DNA of 54,074 nt from a virus. The stretch's first letter is position 1, and the number at the start of each line of letters is the position of its first letter. The stretch lies in the IMG/VR virus record IMGVR_UViG_3300009783_000001, one strand, 5' to 3'. Under the pieces are notes generated by a model. The model did no database searches and was not told the DNA's origin. It was given only the letters and a program-made list of their open reading frames with translations. Both the position numbers and the translations under genes were made by a program. Below, one piece after another: positions 28,754-39,970 of the stretch.

Positions 28754-29311
28754 ATGCTCATCGTAGAAGGGCCCGACGGGGCAGGAAAGACGACCCTCGT
28801 CTCCTCGCTCTGCACCCATCTTGAACTGGAGGTGCGACCTCGGTCATCGACCTCCGATCACGGTCCCGTGGGGGACATCGGTGATTGGATCGACAGGGAT
28901 TTCACCACCAACACCCACGTGGGGATCTATGACCGCCACCCGCTGATCTCCGAGACCATCTACGGCCCCCTCATTCGGGCCAGCCAGAGCGACCTGCTCG
29001 GCATGGGCCCGGTCGAGGACCTCTTCGAGATGTTGTACTCGACGTCGCCCCTGGTCATCATCTACTGCCTGCCCCCCGTCGCAGCAGTCCGGGTGAACGT
29101 GGGTCAGACCCACGAGGGCACCACCGACCATCTTCGAGGGGTGCTGAAGTTCACCGATCAGCTCTACGACCTGTACTCCTACAGGTACCTCATGGATGCA
29201 GCACGCGGTGTGGCCATCAAGTGGGACTACACGGATCTCGACGATGGCCGCAACTTCGAGAAGCTCAAGACCCAGGTCAAGGGCTGCGCCAAGAAGGGCA
29301 GGGTCTGGTGA
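28754..29311 (+). CDS. thymidylate-kinase-like dNMP kinase
   Basis: P-loop EGPDGAGKTT and YDRHPLISETIYG (DR motif region), as in dTMP kinases. Confidence 0.7.
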   Translation: MLIVEGPDGAGKTTLVSSLCTHLELEVRPRSSTSDHGPVGDIGDWIDRDFTTNTHVGIYDRHPLISETIYGPLIRASQSDLLGMGPVEDLFEMLYSTSPLVIIYCLPPVAAVRVNVGQTHEGTTDHLRGVLKFTDQLYDLYSYRYLMDAARGVAIKWDYTDLDDGRNFEKLKTQVKGCAKKGRVW

Positions 29312-29817
29312 TGCAGGATGACCTCTTCAAGTTGATGCTCGCCAAGCAACTCGAGTTGCAAACCCAGAAGATGAAGGATGGGGACCCCCGCAACCTCCGA
29401 GGGGAGGCCCGGGCGGACTTCATCCGATGGAACGCCTACGCCCTCGAAGACGAGATCCACGAGGCCACCGCCGAGGTCAAGTGGAAGCCCTGGGCCAAAG
29501 ATCCAGGTCAGCTGCCTGACATCATGGCCTACAACAAAGAGCTGGTCGACGCCTTCCACTTCTTCATGAACCTGCTCTTGGTCGGCAACCCGGGCTTGCC
29601 TCCCGAAGATCTGGCTGACCTCTTCTTCGATCTTTACATGGAGAAAAACGCCGTCAACGCCAAGCGCCAGGACGATGGCTACACCGGCGACAAGTGCCCG
29701 GTTTGCAAACGCGAGGTCGAAGCAGCAACCAAGCTGGGCGACGACCCCGCCACCCACACGACCTACTACAAGTGCCCCTGCGGCAACCGCTACCACATCC
29801 AGAAGGATCCAACGTGA
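29311..29817 (+). CDS. all-alpha NTP pyrophosphohydrolase (dimeric dUTPase/MazG-like, putative) with C-terminal zinc ribbon
   Basis: ALEDEIHEATAEVKWKPW ... ELVDAFHFFMNL helix pattern. C-terminus CPVC...CPCG. Confidence 0.5.
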   Translation: MQDDLFKLMLAKQLELQTQKMKDGDPRNLRGEARADFIRWNAYALEDEIHEATAEVKWKPWAKDPGQLPDIMAYNKELVDAFHFFMNLLLVGNPGLPPEDLADLFFDLYMEKNAVNAKRQDDGYTGDKCPVCKREVEAATKLGDDPATHTTYYKCPCGNRYHIQKDPT

Positions 29818-30875
29818 CCGCCACCACCCTCAAGCCCTCTGTCTTCGAGGCACCGACCCTGACCGAGCTGCACGCCAAGCTCTGTCGAGACATCGTCATG
29901 GCGCCAGCAGATGACCTCGACGTCATCAGCTCCGTCGATGTCCAGATCCACAACGCGATCTGTTACACGCCATCCATGAAGTGGGACTTCGATCTCAAGG
30001 ACATGTGGCTGACCAAGAGCCGATGGTCCATGATGGTCAAGCAGTACATCGACCCCGACGACCTCAAGGTGTGGCTCGAGCAGGTCACGGGAACCATCGG
30101 GGTCAAGGGCCGAGGGATCGCCACCCTCCGCACGAAGATCGTCAAGCCCCGAGGGGGCGAAGCGACGGGCCATACCAACAAGCAGACCCGGCGCTGGGGC
30201 TCCTGCATGCTGGCGATCACCTACAAGGCGAAGCCCCGCCCGCAGATCACGCTCTACTCCCGGACCAGCTACCTCGGCTACCTCGGCGGGCTTGACATCA
30301 GCGTTGCCTGGATGTGCGCTCGGTACGTCGCCAAGGAACTCGGCATCAACGTCGAGGACATCGCGTTCTGCTGGATGAACGAATCGCTGCAGTACCACAA
30401 CTTCAAGTCCATGGCCTACTTGCTCAACCACCCGAACAAGAGCGAGCGGAAGGCCTACCGGGCCATGCTGATGTGGCCGGAGAAGAAGATCAAGAAGAAG
30501 CGCCCTGACCTCATCAAGGTCCTTGCCAAGTCGCCTGCCTTGAACCTGACGCGGAAGTGGCTGCAGAAGGTCATCCAGGAAGACGCAGACGGCAAAACCT
30601 TGGGCGACATGACCTACAACACCTACCGCCGCATCCGCCGGCGCTTCCACACCGAGGTGATGGGGTACGAATACGCCCAGAAGTTCGAGGGGTGGTCGGT
30701 CTACAAGACCGGCGATCAGAAGGGGGAGAACAAGGAGTTCTTCAAGGCCTACCAGCCCCTGCCCTCGGTCAACATCCACGACTGCGACTTCTCGGCCATC
30801 GGCCTTTCCATCAAGGGGACATGGGGAGTGCCCTTCGACGAGTCCGCCGGCGATCCCGATGAGGATGAGGACTGA
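29814..30875 (+). CDS. divergent thymidylate-synthase-fold (ThyA-like) protein
   Basis: RRWGSCMLAITYK..PQITLYSRTSYLGYLGGLDISVAWMCARYVA aligns by eye to the ThyA core PCH..[24 protein letters not shown]. Catalytic-Cys position retained; RSxD degenerate. Confidence 0.5.
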   Translation: MTATTLKPSVFEAPTLTELHAKLCRDIVMAPADDLDVISSVDVQIHNAICYTPSMKWDFDLKDMWLTKSRWSMMVKQYIDPDDLKVWLEQVTGTIGVKGRGIATLRTKIVKPRGGEATGHTNKQTRRWGSCMLAITYKAKPRPQITLYSRTSYLGYLGGLDISVAWMCARYVAKELGINVEDIAFCWMNESLQYHNFKSMAYLLNHPNKSERKAYRAMLMWPEKKIKKKRPDLIKVLAKSPALNLTRKWLQKVIQEDADGKTLGDMTYNTYRRIRRRFHTEVMGYEYAQKFEGWSVYKTGDQKGENKEFFKAYQPLPSVNIHDCDFSAIGLSIKGTWGVPFDESAGDPDEDED

Positions 30876-31051
30876 TGCCCCCAAACCAATGCGAGTTCAA
30901 GGCCCCGTTTCGGGGCAAGATGGTGCGATGCACCCAGGTCGCTCGATGGGTAGGTCGACTGCACGGTTCCACCGGCGACCTTGCCCTAGTCTGCGACGGC
31001 CACCAACACTTCCTCTGGGAACCGAAGGAGATCAAGCATGAGGGTTCTTGA
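30875..31051 (+). CDS. small Cys/His-rich protein (58 aa)
   Basis: ATG 30875 overlaps the upstream stop (TGATG). MPPNQCEFKAPFRGKMVRCTQ...LVCDGHQHF. Below the ORF-track size cutoff. Confidence 0.35.
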   Translation: MPPNQCEFKAPFRGKMVRCTQVARWVGRLHGSTGDLALVCDGHQHFLWEPKEIKHEGS

Positions 31052-31862
31052 CGACTACGACGAGTTCGATGACATGGTGGAGGACTTGAGGCTCATGTTC
31101 CTCAATTCTGCCAAGGTCGTCGACGTGGGCGAATGGCACTCGCAGCCGATCGACAACCCCCTGCTCATCACCCGAGAGCTTCAGGACGCGATCCTGGTGA
31201 TCCCAGTGCCAACCAATCAGCCGATGCTCGAGCGCCGGGTGCGCCCCAACATGCCCTGGGCTGAGGATCATTTCCAGGAAAGGGTCTCGGGTCGACCGCT
31301 GAACCCGCCGCCCAGCAACGAGTGGTGGCCCTTTGCCCAACAGGGCAACGCGAGTCACAAGGAGGGGGATGGGATCTTCTCGCACACCTACCCGGAGCGC
31401 ATGTGGCCCAAGTATGGGGGTGAGGTGGGTCGACTCTTCGCTCCTGATCCAGAAGAGTGGCCCCGGTACACCCGCAACAACACGAACCTCAACCACAACG
31501 CGGGGCTTCGCTATCGGCTGGGGGATCTCGATGACCTGGTCGAGCAGCTCAAGGACAACCCTGAGACACGCCAGGCATACTTGCCGATCTGGTTCCCGGA
31601 AGACACCGGGGCTGTTGACGGTCAGCGAGTGCCCTGCACGCTCGGGTACCACTTCCTGATCCGGGATGGGAAGATCAACTGCAGCTACTACATCCGCTCA
31701 TGTGACTTCATCCGGCACTTCAGGGATGACGTCTACATGGCGGCTCGGTTGATGCAGTGGATCGCAGACAAGTTGCCGGGGGTCAAGCCCGGCGACCTCA
31801 ACATGTACATCGCCTCGTTTCACGTCTTCGAGGGTGATGTATCCAAGCTGAAGGCGATGTGA
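31038..31862 (+). CDS. ThyA-family pyrimidine C5-transferase (dCMP hydroxymethylase/methylase-like)
   Basis: ETRQAYLPIWFPED...VPCTLGYHFLIRDGKINCSYYIRSCDFIRHFRDDVYMAARL...ASFHVFEGD is the canonical TS core, with Asp at the Asn177-equivalent position. Confidence 0.65.
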   Translation: MRVLDDYDEFDDMVEDLRLMFLNSAKVVDVGEWHSQPIDNPLLITRELQDAILVIPVPTNQPMLERRVRPNMPWAEDHFQERVSGRPLNPPPSNEWWPFAQQGNASHKEGDGIFSHTYPERMWPKYGGEVGRLFAPDPEEWPRYTRNNTNLNHNAGLRYRLGDLDDLVEQLKDNPETRQAYLPIWFPEDTGAVDGQRVPCTLGYHFLIRDGKINCSYYIRSCDFIRHFRDDVYMAARLMQWIADKLPGVKPGDLNMYIASFHVFEGDVSKLKAM

Positions 31863-32332
31863 TGAGGATCTCACGAGACCAGATGTTGCTCAAGATGGCG
31901 CAGGTGGCAGCGATGCGAGGCACTTGCTCACGAGCACGCGTAGGTGTGGTAATTGCACGCGAGGGGCGGGTGTTGTCAACGGGCTACAACGGGGCTCCTG
32001 CCGGCATGGACCATTGCAACCACACCTGCACGTGCCCTCCTCGTCGAACGGTCATCCACCAGGCTGACTGCCCTGAGGTCATGCCTTGCCGGCTCTCGGT
32101 TCATGGGGAGGCCAACGCCATCGCTTACGCAGCTCGGTACGGGGTTCAGGTCGACGGCGCCACCCTCGCCACTACCCTGAGCCCATGCATCCCGTGCGCC
32201 CAGCTCATCATCAACGCCGGAATCACGAGGGTGCTTTGGGCTTCTGAGTACCGAGACACGAGCGGGATCGATCTTCTTTGTTCTGCCGGGCTGTTGACGC
32301 AATGGATCCCTGCTGATAGCATGGACTCATGA
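31859..32332 (+). CDS. dCMP deaminase
   Basis: Zinc motifs HGEANA and PCIPC. GYNG motif. Confidence 0.85.
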   Translation: MMRISRDQMLLKMAQVAAMRGTCSRARVGVVIAREGRVLSTGYNGAPAGMDHCNHTCTCPPRRTVIHQADCPEVMPCRLSVHGEANAIAYAARYGVQVDGATLATTLSPCIPCAQLIINAGITRVLWASEYRDTSGIDLLCSAGLLTQWIPADSMDS

Positions 32333-34860
32333 CGATTCGGAACCCTGATTGCACTGCCTGCAAGCTCCATCGTGGTGTCGAGGAGGTTTGCGAGATAGGG
32401 TTCGGGCCGAAGAAGGCTGACATCATGGTGGTGGGCAAGATGCCCAACAGCTCCACCTATCGAGCCTCTCTTGAAGCGGATCTGCTCGAGGTGGGGATCG
32501 ACCCAGCAACCGTCTACTTCACCTCGGCGCTGAAGTGCAGGAACTTCGACCTGAACGCCAGCAACGTCGACATCAAGGCATGCCGGCCCTACCTCGACGC
32601 GGAAATCGAGAAGGTGCAGCCCAAGTGGATCCTCGCAACGGGCAATGAGGGACTCTTTGCACTCACAGGCCACTCAGGCATCATGAAGTATCGCAGCCGG
32701 GTGATCGAGCGAGGCGATATCTCGATCATCCCTACGATCTCCCCAGCAGCTGCTCTGCGCAACCCAGGCCAGCGAGGGTCATGGCTGACCGACCTGAGGT
32801 TCTTCGCATCGCAGGTGTTCGAGAAATCGGCCAAGATCGCCAAACCCGAGATGGTCTACATCACGACCAAGAAGCGATTCCTCTGGCTCAAGAAGATCCT
32901 CGCTAAGACCGAGTTGATCTCCTACGACATCGAGACCTATTCCACACCGATGGGTGACGAGTTCGCCGACAACGCTGCGATCGTGAGTCTCTCGGGCACT
33001 TGCGTTCTGCGCAACGGCAAGGTAGTCGTCTGGTGCATCCCCCTTTTCCACCCGCAATCGCCCTTCCGCAGCAACTGGCGGCAAGCGTTGAGGCAGCTAG
33101 CTCCGCTGTTGGAAGCGATCCCAAAGCAGATTGCTCACAACGGCAAGTACGACGCTCGCTGGATGAGGCAATTCGGGGTACGCATGGTTGTGACCTTCGA
33201 CACCATGCTCGCTTGCCACCTCCTCGACGAGAATCGAGCCAAGGGCCTCAAGCCTCAAGCCACCTCCCGCTTCGGGGTGGCCCCCTGGGGCGTTGACACA
33301 AGGAACCTGCTCGACATGCCGATCGAGGAGGTGATGGAGTACAACTGCCTCGACACCTTCTACACCTATCACGTCTACCTCGAGACGAAGGAAGAGCTCA
33401 AGGCTCAGCCTCGGTTGCTGCGCATCTTCATCCTCATCACGACCAAGGCGAACAACATCCTGATTGACGTCGAGCGACATGGGGTGTGGACCGATCGTGA
33501 GCGACTTCAGACGCAAACCGCCCGGACGCTTGCGCTTCGTGACGAGGTCGACAAGCAGTTGATGGCTTGGGTTCCTGAGGTGGGCTGGGAACCTTCGCCT
33601 AAGAAAGCCAAGAAGGGCAAGACTGCATGGCCCACACAGGGCAAGGGCATCAAACCAGTCGAGGTCAACTTCAACCCCTCCAACTTCGCTCGCTGGTGGA
33701 TCTTTGATTACCTCGGGCTACCGATCCTCGAGCGAGGCAAAGACAAGCCCGATGGGGGCCCGGGTGACCCCTCCATGAAGGAGGCGGTGCTCATGGAGCT
33801 CAAGGAGAGTCACGAGGTAGTAGCCTTGCTGCTCGAGCGGGCTCGACTACAGAAGATGACCACCTTCTTCAACGCCTACAACAACATCATCGACGAGGCT
33901 GACCGCATCCGCACTACGTTCAAGCTCGCCGGCACCGTGACCGGGCGACTGAGCAGTGGCAAGGCTGATGCCGACAAGATCCCTGGTGCTCGGGACATTC
34001 GAGGGGTGAACCTGCAACAGGTACCTCGTGACCCCGCCGTACGAGGGCTCTTCGGGGCACCTCCTCCGAAGTACCTCTTCATCGAAGCTGACTTCTCCCA
34101 GGTCGAGCTCAGGGTTGTCGCCTTCATCTCACGTGACCCTCGCATGATGTACCTCTACCAAACGGGGCAGGACATTCACCGAGCCACCGCTGCGGAAACC
34201 CTCGGGGTGCCCATCGACCAGGTGAGCAAGGACGATCGCAAGAAAGCCAAGGCGGTGAACTTCGGCTTCGTCTACGGCATGGGGTGGAAGAAGTTCATCC
34301 AGACTGCCTTCGAGAAGTACGAGCTCCACTTCACCGAGGCTGAGGCCATGGCTATCCGGAAGGCCTTCTTCAGGCAATTCCCCGGTCTACTGCCCTGGCA
34401 CGCTCGTCAACGACGCCTGGTGAACGAGCACATGAGGGTTGTCTCGCCCCTCGGTAGGGTACGCCACCTGCCCGACATCCTCTCAGGCGAGCAGGGAGTG
34501 AGGGGTGAAGCCGAGCGACAGGCCATCAACTCGCCCGTGCAGTCGTTCGCTTCAGACATGACCCAGCTCAGCATGATCTTGATCCATGAGCACTTCGAGA
34601 AGCTTGGTATCAAGGCACACATCCTGGGCTCGGTGCATGATGCTCTCCTCTTCGAGGTTCACCACAAGCATGTTGCTCGAGCCATGCCGATCATCAAGTC
34701 CACCATGGAGAACCTCCCGCTCAAGCGGATGTTCGGCATCACCCTCGATGTTCCCATCGTCGCTGACCTCAAGCTTGGCACCCACTGGGGTGATGCAACT
34801 GAGCTCGAGGAACACGAAGTCTACAACTACAACCCCAAGAAAGCACTGGTCAACGCATGA
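32329..34860 (+). CDS. polA: family A DNA polymerase with 3'-5' exonuclease and N-terminal UDG-family-4-like domain
   Basis: Exo I SYDIETYS. Motif A DFSQVELRV, motif B KKAKAVNFGFVYGMG, motif C SVHDALLFE. N-terminal ~170 aa: CTACKLH...VGKMPN...ALKC...KAC...ISPAAALRNP. Confidence 0.9.
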   Translation: MTIRNPDCTACKLHRGVEEVCEIGFGPKKADIMVVGKMPNSSTYRASLEADLLEVGIDPATVYFTSALKCRNFDLNASNVDIKACRPYLDAEIEKVQPKWILATGNEGLFALTGHSGIMKYRSRVIERGDISIIPTISPAAALRNPGQRGSWLTDLRFFASQVFEKSAKIAKPEMVYITTKKRFLWLKKILAKTELISYDIETYSTPMGDEFADNAAIVSLSGTCVLRNGKVVVWCIPLFHPQSPFRSNWRQALRQLAPLLEAIPKQIAHNGKYDARWMRQFGVRMVVTFDTMLACHLLDENRAKGLKPQATSRFGVAPWGVDTRNLLDMPIEEVMEYNCLDTFYTYHVYLETKEELKAQPRLLRIFILITTKANNILIDVERHGVWTDRERLQTQTARTLALRDEVDKQLMAWVPEVGWEPSPKKAKKGKTAWPTQGKGIKPVEVNFNPSNFARWWIFDYLGLPILERGKDKPDGGPGDPSMKEAVLMELKESHEVVALLLERARLQKMTTFFNAYNNIIDEADRIRTTFKLAGTVTGRLSSGKADADKIPGARDIRGVNLQQVPRDPAVRGLFGAPPPKYLFIEADFSQVELRVVAFISRDPRMMYLYQTGQDIHRATAAETLGVPIDQVSKDDRKKAKAVNFGFVYGMGWKKFIQTAFEKYELHFTEAEAMAIRKAFFRQFPGLLPWHARQRRLVNEHMRVVSPLGRVRHLPDILSGEQGVRGEAERQAINSPVQSFASDMTQLSMILIHEHFEKLGIKAHILGSVHDALLFEVHHKHVARAMPIIKSTMENLPLKRMFGITLDVPIVADLKLGTHWGDATELEEHEVYNYNPKKALVNA

Positions 34861-35615
34861 CTGACACCCGACACCTCCTCAAGCCGGAAGAACTCGAGGC
34901 CCTCGAGAAGCCAGCCGAGTTCTTCCCCGACCTGGTCTGCGAGTACCGAGATCACATGGGCGACGATGACGCGGTCATCGAAGCCATGCTGGTGAGCACG
35001 CAGGGCGCCAGCGCCAAGGACCTCAAGGCCGACAAGGGCCGCATCGACTTCCTCATGAAGAACCGACACGGCACGCCGTTCGAGCACACCGCCATCAAGT
35101 TCTACGTGCGGGCGCCGATCATGGTCTTCCGGGAGTGGCACCGCCACCGCATCGGCTTCAGCTACAACGAGGTCTCGGCTCGGTACAAAGTGATGGAGCC
35201 CCACTTCTACATCCCCGGCCCCGATCGCCCCCTGGTGCAGCACGGCAAGCACAGCAACACCTGGTTCGAGCCGGCGACGCCCGAGCAGTACGACATCTTC
35301 GTCAACGACCAGCAGGAGACCTTCGAGTTCCAGTGGTACAAGTACGCCAAGCAGCTCAAGGACGGCATCGCCAAGGAGGTCGCTCGAGACGTACTCGGTG
35401 TGGGCCTCTACACGCAGATGTTCGTCACCCTCAACCTCCGCTCGGCCCTGAGCTTCCTCTCGCTGCGGCAGAAGTTCACCGCCGAGGAGGCGATGTTCCC
35501 CTCGTCGCCGCAGTGGGAGATCAACCAGTGCGCCAACCAGATGGAAGCCACCATCGCCGAGCTCTTCCCCCTGACCCACCAGTGCTACGTGGATCGCCTC
35601 CGCGTCGCCCCCTGA
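34857..35615 (+). CDS. thyX: flavin-dependent thymidylate synthase ThyX
   Basis: ThyX signature WHRHRIGFSYNEVSARY (RHRxxSxxxxSxR). Confidence 0.9.
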   Translation: MTDTRHLLKPEELEALEKPAEFFPDLVCEYRDHMGDDDAVIEAMLVSTQGASAKDLKADKGRIDFLMKNRHGTPFEHTAIKFYVRAPIMVFREWHRHRIGFSYNEVSARYKVMEPHFYIPGPDRPLVQHGKHSNTWFEPATPEQYDIFVNDQQETFEFQWYKYAKQLKDGIAKEVARDVLGVGLYTQMFVTLNLRSALSFLSLRQKFTAEEAMFPSSPQWEINQCANQMEATIAELFPLTHQCYVDRLRVAP

Positions 35616-39313: not shown

Positions 39314-39667
39314 TCAGTGCGGCAGGGGTGTGCGGACCCAGCAGGGGTAAACCTGACTGGGCTTAGTCTCTGGAATCGGCAGTTCGACGAACTGGAAGCC
39401 ATGCGCCGAATACCAATGCTCGAGCTTCTCGTTCGACAGCGGACCACTGGAGCTGATCTCGAGCCCGAGGGTTACCCCCTCATCATCAGCAGCATCGCAG
39501 ATCTGTCGGAGCAGTTGCGATCCCACACCCTTCCCTCGTTGGCTCTCGGCCACGTTGATGCGACTGATCCATGTAACGCCAGGAAGCCCCACCAGCGCAC
39601 CGTCGAAGGTGTCAGCGATGGAGTTGTCCCGGGCGGTTGGACCGAGGATGATGTAGTAGGACTGCAT
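39314..39667 (-). CDS. GNAT-family N-acetyltransferase (minimal, 117 aa)
   Basis: Acetyl-CoA motif A ESQRGKGVGSQLL. ATG 39667 overlaps the upstream stop (ATGA). Confidence 0.7.
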   Translation of the reverse strand: MQSYYIILGPTARDNSIADTFDGALVGLPGVTWISRINVAESQRGKGVGSQLLRQICDAADDEGVTLGLEISSSGPLSNEKLEHWYSAHGFQFVELPIPETKPSQVYPCWVRTPLPH

Positions 39668-39970
39668 CAGACATCGGGGAGGGTGTGGGTCTTGCGGTAG
39701 TTCTTGGCCCATACCTTGTTCTTCGGGCGTCGAGAGATGATGCGCCAGTTCCAGTGCTCAGCCCAGTAGTCGAACTCGGTGATGACCTTGACCCGGCCTC
39801 CCGGCTGGTAGACGAGAATCGAGCGCGTCATCCCGCGTCCAACCTTGAGGACCAGAGCCTTGACGGCCTTCGGGTCTTCATCCTTGTCACGGAAGTTGCC
39901 CATGAGGAGGATGTCCCCAGCGTGTGGGTGGGCGATGTCGTAGTTGGGTGAGAGGGCAGCAGGGGTCATG
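39667..39970 (-). CDS. hypothetical protein (100 aa; alternative start 40005)
   Basis: ATG 39970 overlaps the stop of the upstream micro-ORF (ATGA), consistent with the coupling pattern of this operon. Confidence 0.5.

Follow-up and report, generated by a model that had tools for sequence, protein, structure and literature searches.

Why should a phage that encodes a flavin-dependent thymidylate synthase (ThyX) devote two further genes to proteins of the ThyA fold? The question is raised by an eight-gene block in a stretch of viral DNA of 54,074 nucleotides (IMG/VR record IMGVR_UViG_3300009783_000001), the whole of which we call the window. Our analysis of the two proteins, a ThyA homolog that we term TS-D and a second protein that we term U, suggests that the virion DNA of this phage may contain a C5-modified deoxycytidine made by TS-D with U, with hydroxymethyl as the single most likely substituent; we judge the chances of this reading to be about even. 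The original prediction, made from the letters of the window, had described a co-directional block, and all eight genes are indeed present on the plus strand at the positions it assigned, spanning 28754-35615 with neighbors that overlap by 1-14 nucleotides. The block forms a single operon with the following genes:

28754..29311, plus strand: thymidylate kinase (TMK)-like P-loop deoxynucleoside monophosphate (dNMP) kinase, 185 amino acids, with the motif EGPDGAGKTT and a DRH motif
29311..29817, plus strand: all-alpha nucleoside triphosphate (NTP) pyrophosphatase with a C-terminal zinc ribbon, 168 amino acids, of the dimeric-dUTPase/MazG superfamily
29814..30875, plus strand: U, a divergent protein of predicted ThyA fold, 353 amino acids, in phrog_13667 (unknown function)
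30875..31051, plus strand: open reading frame (ORF) rich in Cys and His, 58 amino acids
31038..31862, plus strand: TS-D, ThyA homolog, 274 amino acids, PF00303
31859..32332, plus strand: deoxycytidine monophosphate (dCMP) deaminase, 157 amino acids, with HxE and PCxxC zinc motifs
32329..34860, plus strand: family A DNA polymerase (PolA) with N-terminal uracil-DNA glycosylase (UDG)-like and 3'-5' exonuclease domains, 843 amino acids
34857..35615, plus strand: ThyX, 252 amino acids

TS-D matches the thymidylate synthase (TS) family PF00303 (E=1.1e-12, 48 bits against a cut-off of 24.3) and phrog_160 (E=4.4e-34), and falls far under every cut-off of the NCBIfam ThyA equivalogs. For comparison we used E. 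coli ThyA and T4 gp42, each sequence verified at every residue against its PDB entry, together with the dCMP methyltransferase of phage Xp12; after the alignment, a census of 61 homologs in E. coli numbering gave the following picture of the TS-D family:

Cys146, Arg126, Arg166 and His207: invariant (61 of 61)
Asp169: Asp in 60 of the 61 homologs, Glu in one
Asn177: always Asp
His147: Thr or Ser, and Thr in the TS-D of the window
Arg127: always Gln
Leu143: always Arg
Tyr209: Phe in 58 of the 61 homologs
Arg21: not conserved
C-terminus: the TS-D chain stops 12 residues past His207, with no C-terminal lid

Replacement of Asn177 by Asp is the switch from deoxyuridine monophosphate (dUMP) to dCMP, and is seen in T4 gp42, the Xp12 TS, MilA and the 5-hydroxy-dCMP synthases (PMC13326640); positions 147 and 177 are also the two at which the TS of modified metavirome contigs depart from those of unmodified ones (PMC8670742). 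By its residues, TS-D is predicted to be a dCMP C5-modifying enzyme. The original prediction had credited it with a canonical core, a description that does not survive the alignment: several canonical residues are replaced (N177D, H147T, R127Q, L143R and Y209F) and the lid is absent. To judge from its sequence, TS-D is a divergent, lid-less, AfhB-like ThyA homolog, and not a canonical dUMP-methylating ThyA. Its best sequence matches in the PDB are AfhB (9iqc/9iqu, 2e-10) and MilA (3.9e-10), ahead of any true TS, and its best structural match is AfhB (E=4e-12, template modeling (TM) score 0.70 on the target); the C-terminal half matches genes of T4-like phages, where the specific annotations are dCMP hydroxymethylase (gp42). 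A thymidine hypermodification pathway of the M6/ViI type, with the kinase as 5-HMUDK and U as aGPT-Pplase, was considered and rejected, as the proteins give no such Pfam matches and TS-D has Asp177, not Asn177.

The likely product can be approached from the C-terminus of TS-D. The C-terminal lid of TS is needed for the hydride transfer that forms the methyl group, as seen in TS truncation mutants. TS-D is without this lid, and a non-reductive product such as hydroxymethyl would therefore be favored. An acidic residue at position 143 is the mark of hydroxymethylases and hydroxylases, and D169N is the signature of all tested 5-hydroxy-dCMP synthases (PMC13326640); the product rule at position 143 is inapplicable to TS-D, because the residue there is Arg.

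Another catalytic position can be noted here. Tyr94 of TS abstracts the C5 proton; the residue aligned with it is Leu in the TS-D of the window (window 31500-31520, residues ~156-162) and Tyr in 55 of 63 family members. This region of TS-D is poorly modeled, with a predicted local distance difference test (pLDDT) score below 50, and the alignment there is uncertain.

U has no sequence match in Pfam, NCBIfam or the PDB, phmmer and hmmsearch searches of the PDB included, and none of 51 U-family members matches Pfam, so that membership of PF00303 is not seen by sequence profile. The ThyA fold first proposed for it holds on predicted structure. An AlphaFold2 model of U was built from a 38-sequence alignment (mean pLDDT 89, predicted TM-score 0.86) and compared with the PDB by Foldseek; the top matches (50 listed) all belong to the ThyA family, counting one engineered serine hydrolase whose scaffold is E. 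coli TS. AfhB of phage HY126 (9iqu, E=3.7e-6) and MilA lead the list, followed by the TS of E. coli, Corynebacterium and M. tuberculosis and by T4 dCMP hydroxymethylase, with Foldseek probabilities of 1.0 and TM-scores of 0.38-0.57. Against the predicted viral structures of BFVD, uncharacterized phage proteins come first, one of them from Pseudomonas phage PMBT14, and TS and gp42 follow.

Profile comparison gives a weak match in the same direction. A broad U alignment of 51 members, drawn from an exhaustive hidden Markov model search that found 218 clusters at 50% identity, aligned with ThyA sequences in hhalign at E=0.0025 and a probability of 12%, with the catalytic motifs in register: C121 of U falls on Cys146, R140 on Arg166, Y143 on Asp169 and D151 on Asn177. 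No variation is seen in the U family at C121, R140, G119 or Y68, and next to none at D151, S139, R60 and R263 (63-sequence census; 51-member broad alignment); U-like proteins from phages of Serratia, Clostridium and Brevundimonas keep the equivalents of C121 and R140. The equivalent of Cys146 lies in a GSCM motif, that of Arg166 in SRT and the Asp at the Asn177 position in LD, and an equivalent of His207 is also present. The folate-contacting Asp169 is missing, with Tyr in actinophage versions of U and Glu in others. The protein ends in a basic helical extension (RRIRRRFH); its GTG start overlaps the preceding stop by 4 nucleotides, and the 353-residue call agrees with independent gene calls. 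On the model, then, U represents a distinct, very divergent branch of the ThyA fold in which the nucleophile, the phosphate-binding Arg and the base-specificity Asp appear to be kept.

The two genes are found together far beyond the window. The U alignment, scanned against IMG/VR, yielded 59 loci; TS-D directly follows U in all 58 of those that extend past U, with an overlap of 4 nucleotides between the two genes in eight loci, and the order SNF2-kinase-(NTP pyrophosphatase)-U-TS-D-deaminase-PolA-Cas4 is fixed. U homologs are found in 85 GenBank phage records, and of the 107 phage records whose TS-D is full-length, ~103 have a recognizable U beside it. Annotations of Curtobacterium phage Shrew, Gordonia phage GTE2 and Mycobacterium phages FF47 and Muddy show the same gene order, each with U labeled 'hypothetical protein' and TS-D 'thymidylate synthase'. 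The genes of Muddy (KF024728; locus L070, 6732-9943) are annotated as thymidylate kinase, dUTPase, hypothetical, thymidylate synthase, hypothetical and PolA; gp46 reads RSCD...HND, that is, Asp at position 177, gp47 has the GSCM, SRTGY and LD motifs of U, and the HAE and PCxxC motifs of gp45, a product annotated as hypothetical, mark it as a dCMP deaminase.

A further layout, kinase-pyrophosphatase-X-TS-D-PolA, occurs in Serratia phages Opt-155, Serbin and Tlacuache, Pseudomonas phages PMBT14 and Almagne, a Yersinia phage, Brevundimonas phages and Clostridium phage H1. Here X is a protein of 250-280 residues that is too divergent from U for BLAST; it shows the U-like motifs G-x-C-(M/L/I), Y-R-(S/T/V) and (A/L)-D-L, is tied to U structurally through the PMBT14 protein matched in BFVD, and is labeled 'pyrimidine hmase synthase' in two GenBank records, one of them MW202455. 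In H1 (L066, 2880-5651; a low-GC Firmicute phage) and the alphaproteobacterial Brevundimonas phage Polewnik (L067, 2514-5642) the genes run kinase-pyrophosphatase-U-TS-D-PolA with no deaminase, and the deaminase is therefore optional in the cassette. Hosts of the phages with the pair include Actinobacteria, Proteobacteria and Firmicutes, and the module is a cassette that is conserved and widespread, not peculiar to the window.

MW202455, an unrelated Manatee Spring phage, is informative with regard to thymidylate supply. There (L065, 276-4509) ThyX lies directly upstream of U and TS-D, and there is no deaminase. Because ThyX accompanies the pair in this phage, in two of the 59 IMG/VR loci and in the window, the pair is probably not the dUMP-to-dTMP enzyme. 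The original prediction had called the two ThyA-fold proteins surplus to ThyX; an intact ThyX does adjoin the module, in MW202455 as well, and the argument extends only to the window lineage, since 57 of the 59 relatives are without ThyX. In the window lineage ThyX is an accessory to the module.

For the kinase, the zinc-ribbon NTP pyrophosphatase, the dCMP deaminase, the UDG-like PolA and ThyX, profile matches agree with the identities first assigned. The kinase matches phrog_761 'thymidylate kinase' (E=6.8e-14) and, weakly, the P-loop of TIGR00041, and has no match in Pfam or the PDB; it lies upstream of U in 57 of the 59 IMG/VR loci, one of the two exceptions being cut off upstream. The NTP pyrophosphatase matches PF08761 dUTPase_2 (E=2.6e-9), phrog_18650, phrog_173 and phrog_12184, and weakly the dimeric dUTPases in the PDB; its C-terminal CxxC...CxC gives a weak Zn_ribbon_CSL match. 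The deaminase (PF00383, E=2.8e-21) has T4 dCMP deaminase (1vq2, 1.6e-20) and the S-TIM5 enzyme (4p9c) as its best PDB matches. ThyX scores 148.3 bits against the TIGR02170 cut-off of 87.9, an equivalog-level match, and matches PF02511 (2.5e-38).

PolA contains the domains PF00476 (8.6e-81), PF03167 (UDG, 1.4e-14) and PF01612 (3.7e-10). The UDG-superfamily domain (window 32329-32800) keeps the Fe-S cluster cysteines; by eye, what we take to be the family-4 motif A, GE(A/G)PG, reads GKMPN, and the presumed motif-B His reads Ser (SPAAALRNP). Uracil excision by this domain is doubtful, because motif A and the motif-B His are both replaced.

The original prediction had likened the gene set to gp56, gp42, gp1 and cd of T4 (dCTPase, dCMP hydroxymethylase, dNMP kinase and deaminase, respectively), and the comparison is a fair one: each enzyme class has one member in the operon, and TS-D carries Asp at the Asn177 position. 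TS-D further resembles gp42 in its Thr at 147 and its retained Asp169, the deaminase is most similar to the T4 enzyme, and the NTP pyrophosphatase belongs, like gp56, to the all-alpha superfamily. The differences lie in TS-D, which has Arg where gp42 has Asp at 143 and lacks the C-terminal segment; in the kinase, which is TMK-like and not gp1-like; and in the supply of dTMP, which comes from ThyX and not from td and frd. No glucosyltransferase was found in the window ORFs scanned, and TS-D comes with an obligatory ThyA-fold partner, U.

Other relatives of TS-D come from outside the T4 system. AfhB of phage HY126 and RB69 gp48, flavin-dependent 5-hydroxy-dCMP synthases, are the nearest solved structures to both TS-D and U; AfhB shares with TS-D a compact architecture, a short C-terminus, Asp at 177 and an N-terminal '(W/Y)AED..F' motif. 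TS-D differs from these enzymes in lacking the defining D169N and in having a non-acidic residue at 143, and the window has no arabinosyl- or glycosyltransferase cluster. MilA, the CMP 5-hydroxymethylase of mildiomycin biosynthesis, is a cytosine-specific ThyA homolog with Asp177, like TS-D, and is similar in length to U; it differs in belonging to bacterial secondary metabolism, in using a ribonucleotide substrate and in having no paired paralog.

We propose that the block is a T4-type pre-replicative cytosine-replacement operon built around a two-enzyme ThyA-fold core. The case for pre-replicative cytosine modification lies in the combination of the dCMP signature of TS-D with a dCTPase-type NTP pyrophosphatase, a TMK-like kinase and an adjacent polymerase, and the individual steps are suggested by family membership and residue signatures. 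The NTP pyrophosphatase, as an analog of gp56, would turn dCTP (and dUTP) into the monophosphate and so clear canonical dCTP. The conserved Cys of TS-D would then attack C6 of dCMP, with the Asp at 177 reading the N3/N4 edge of the cytosine, and TS-D would add a small C5 substituent; 5-hydroxymethyl-dCMP would be the likeliest product, because TS-D lacks the lid yet keeps the folate contact Asp169. U, also a ThyA-fold enzyme that looks active, would draw on the same pool of cytosine nucleotides, either as the other half of a heterodimer with TS-D or by carrying out a further reaction on what TS-D produces. A ThyA enzyme works as an obligate dimer, in which Arg126'/127' is shared between the subunits at the interface. 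The strict adjacency of U and TS-D, their translational coupling, the intact nucleophile of U and the obligate dimeric fold make heterodimer and second step the leading candidate roles.

The C5-substituted dCMP would be phosphorylated by the TMK-like kinase; TMK-type kinases would be expected to read the C5 substituent, and host Cmk is not expected to accept 5-substituted dCMP and would handle it poorly. Host NDK and phage PolA would place the modified nucleotide in DNA, and the deaminase would supply dUMP for dTMP synthesis by ThyX, or by the host enzyme in relatives without ThyX. A bolder version is that U and TS-D constitute an obligate two-ThyA-fold system, perhaps a heterodimer whose two active sites differ, which would make a deoxycytidine derivative beyond the reach of any single known ThyA homolog and place it in the DNA of phages of at least three phyla, Muddy included; such a derivative might, for example, be a second-step product formed via an exocyclic-methylene intermediate. 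We regard this version as unlikely.

Several observations weigh against C5-modified cytosine made by TS-D with U. Of the residues through which canonical TS touches the nucleotide, TS-D does not retain Arg21, Arg127 or Tyr209, and the Arg at position 143 is neither acidic, as in the hydroxymethylases and hydroxylases, nor the Leu of TS nor the Asn of Xp12. The kinship of U with ThyA is modest, resting on predicted structure, on TM-scores of 0.38-0.57 and on the weak hhalign match to the broad profile; with a narrow U profile, hhalign gave no match to the TS-D profile. A post-replicative tailoring enzyme was not found in the window ORFs scanned. Literature searches, whose coverage was incomplete, turned up no phage of the GTE2, Muddy, Serbin, PMBT14 or Polewnik type, nor P744, with DNA reported as modified, and no TS-D-family sequence matched the tested TS in paper supplements. 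EcoRI patterns served to dereplicate the Brevundimonas phages that carry the pair, with no isolate recorded as refractory, which speaks weakly against full replacement of cytosine in these phages; this argument depends on EcoRI being blocked by 5-substituted cytosine.

Some of these points would fit virion DNA that is canonical, with the block serving nucleotide supply (for example by conversion of dCMP to 5-methyl-dCMP and then, fully deaminated, to dTMP), pool balancing or anti-defense. Hundreds of cultured actinophages with the module have been sequenced and are routinely restriction-typed, and we found no published mention of modified DNA among them; the Brevundimonas collection could be typed with EcoRI; the scan of window ORFs showed no glycosyl-, methyl- or other tailoring transferase; and TS-D is uniformly called 'thymidylate synthase' in GenBank. 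The first two of these points are weak, the lack of reports because 5-methylcytosine and 5-hydroxymethylcytosine leave Illumina sequencing undisturbed. The residue changes in TS-D argue the other way, with Asn177 to Asp and His147 to Thr/Ser being those that separate modified from unmodified contigs (PMC8670742), as do the dedicated kinase and dCTPase-type pyrophosphatase beside the pair, an arrangement of base replacement, and the co-occurrence of ThyX. Canonical DNA is in our view rather unlikely, and the least so of the alternatives considered. The flavin-dependent chemistry of AfhB and RB69 gp48 offers another possibility, in which TS-D or U would be a dCMP hydroxylase giving 5-hydroxycytosine DNA. 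AfhB (9iqu, 9iqc) is the best neighbor of TS-D in sequence and structure and the best structural neighbor of U, TS-D shares its short C-terminus and '(W/Y)AED..F' motif, and U lacks Asp169. Even so we consider this product very unlikely, as D169N is absent (Asp169 in 60 of the 61 TS-D homologs), residue 143 is Arg and not Glu, and the known 5-hydroxycytosine phages carry glycosyltransferases that use the hydroxyl (PMC13326640), of which the window ORFs scanned contain none.

Methylation must be weighed as well, given the company that such genes keep elsewhere. MetaGPA compares restriction-resistant (cytosine-modified) metavirome contigs with controls, and the preprint reports a ThyA homolog within 3 kb of the deaminase in 70% of modified deaminase-carrying contigs against 6% of unmodified ones, a dCMP signature in 85% of those TS, and PRA-PH/MazG and PolA as the commonest neighbors (bioRxiv 10.1101/2024.12.05.627091). 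The window shares with these neighborhoods, and with the 5-methylcytosine system of Xp12 and PaMx74, gene content and order around the deaminase, Asp177 and a PolA immediately downstream; the accessible part of the preprint does not mention U. In a route of the Xp12 type, TS-D, with U perhaps as a reductive half, would methylate dCMP, the kinase and PolA would put 5-methylcytosine in DNA, and the deaminase would turn part of the 5-methyl-deoxycytidine pool to thymidine, so that in relatives without ThyX the module would supply both modified cytosine and thymine. This would suit the 57 of 59 relatives that have no other thymidylate synthase. The Xp12 TS also combines Asp177 with a non-acidic residue at 143 (Asn, where TS-D has Arg), and according to the same preprint 5 of 7 linked TS tested made 5-methyl-dCMP and deaminases linked to a TS with Asp177 in modified contigs deaminate 5-methyl- and 5-hydroxymethylcytosine nucleotides (bioRxiv 10.1101/2024.12.05.627091).

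TS-D, however, belongs to another, lid-less branch, whereas the Xp12 TS and E. coli ThyA keep the long C-terminal segment, which is in general needed for hydride transfer. No dihydrofolate reductase was found among 28 window proteins scanned, while that of Xp12 adjoins its deaminase. The best matches of the window deaminase are ordinary dCMP deaminases, those of T4 and S-TIM5, and its identity to the Xp12 enzyme is only 25%, although comparison with the Xp12 and PDB deaminases did not discriminate 5-methylcytosine-selective from ordinary specificity. ThyX, finally, would be redundant in such a route, yet it has been gained beside the pair at least twice. Taken together, we hold a route of the Xp12 type to be quite unlikely, and continue to prefer a C5-substituted cytosine made by TS-D with U, with hydroxymethyl as the likeliest substituent.

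Pre-replicative pyrimidine modification by ThyA homologs is a known kind of pathway, and the general neighborhood is known too. What appears to be new is the TS-D branch (lid-less, Arg143, Gln127), of which we found no tested member; the U family, uncharacterized and invisible to Pfam; and the near-obligate pairing of U and TS-D across three phyla. No paper describing the pair was found in the literature searched, the coverage of which was incomplete, so that a prior description is possible. Coupling of a ThyA homolog to a second member of its family is an arrangement that appears to be undescribed for the ThyA fold. If our reading is right, many SEA-PHAGES phages of Gordonia, Microbacterium and Streptomyces, and the Mycobacterium cluster AB phages, to which Muddy belongs, would contain a non-canonical cytosine that has never been looked for, and the annotation of TS-D as 'thymidylate synthase' would be wrong in these phages. 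Muddy has been used in patients. A modified cytosine would bear on host range in the face of restriction and CRISPR defenses, on sensitivity to type IV restriction, on phage engineering and on immune sensing of therapeutic phage DNA. The prediction is directly testable, as cultured phages with the module exist, Triscuit and the therapeutic Muddy among them.

The 58-residue ORF between U and TS-D, listed in the original prediction as part of the block, was called as a gene by independent gene callers, and to this extent the listing was sound; it has no homolog in 64 related loci, and elsewhere the site holds unrelated small ORFs or nothing. The ORF is lineage-specific and probably outside the conserved system. 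Between U and TS-D, different lineages repeatedly carry a small Cys-rich ORF of zinc-ribbon-like type (window 30875-31051 and the equivalent site in loci L011, L024, L027 and L036), with no shared sequence similarity.

Around the block, an ATP-dependent ligase and an SNF2 helicase lie on the 5' side and a PD-(D/E)XK (Cas4-like) nuclease and an AAA_24 (Sak4-like) ATPase on the 3' side. The original prediction had reported no glycosyltransferase or DNA methyltransferase, and we likewise found none among 20 further window ORFs scanned; window 1-54074 yielded no tRNA genes. A 132-residue acetyltransferase ORF of the GNAT family lies at 39314-39712 on the minus strand, in the leftward early region (PF13508 7e-8, PF00583 2e-7), with no evidence tying it to the nucleotide module. 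The genome is GC-rich, at ~61%. The same phage has been assembled from two independent metagenomes (ENA ERZ795056, a contig of 53,647 bp, and JGI 3300010355, a contig of 22,164 bp); the deaminase is missing from the gene lists of these two copies, and the other seven gene calls, of 185, 168, 353, 58, 274, 843 and 252 amino acids, agree in length with those of the original prediction.

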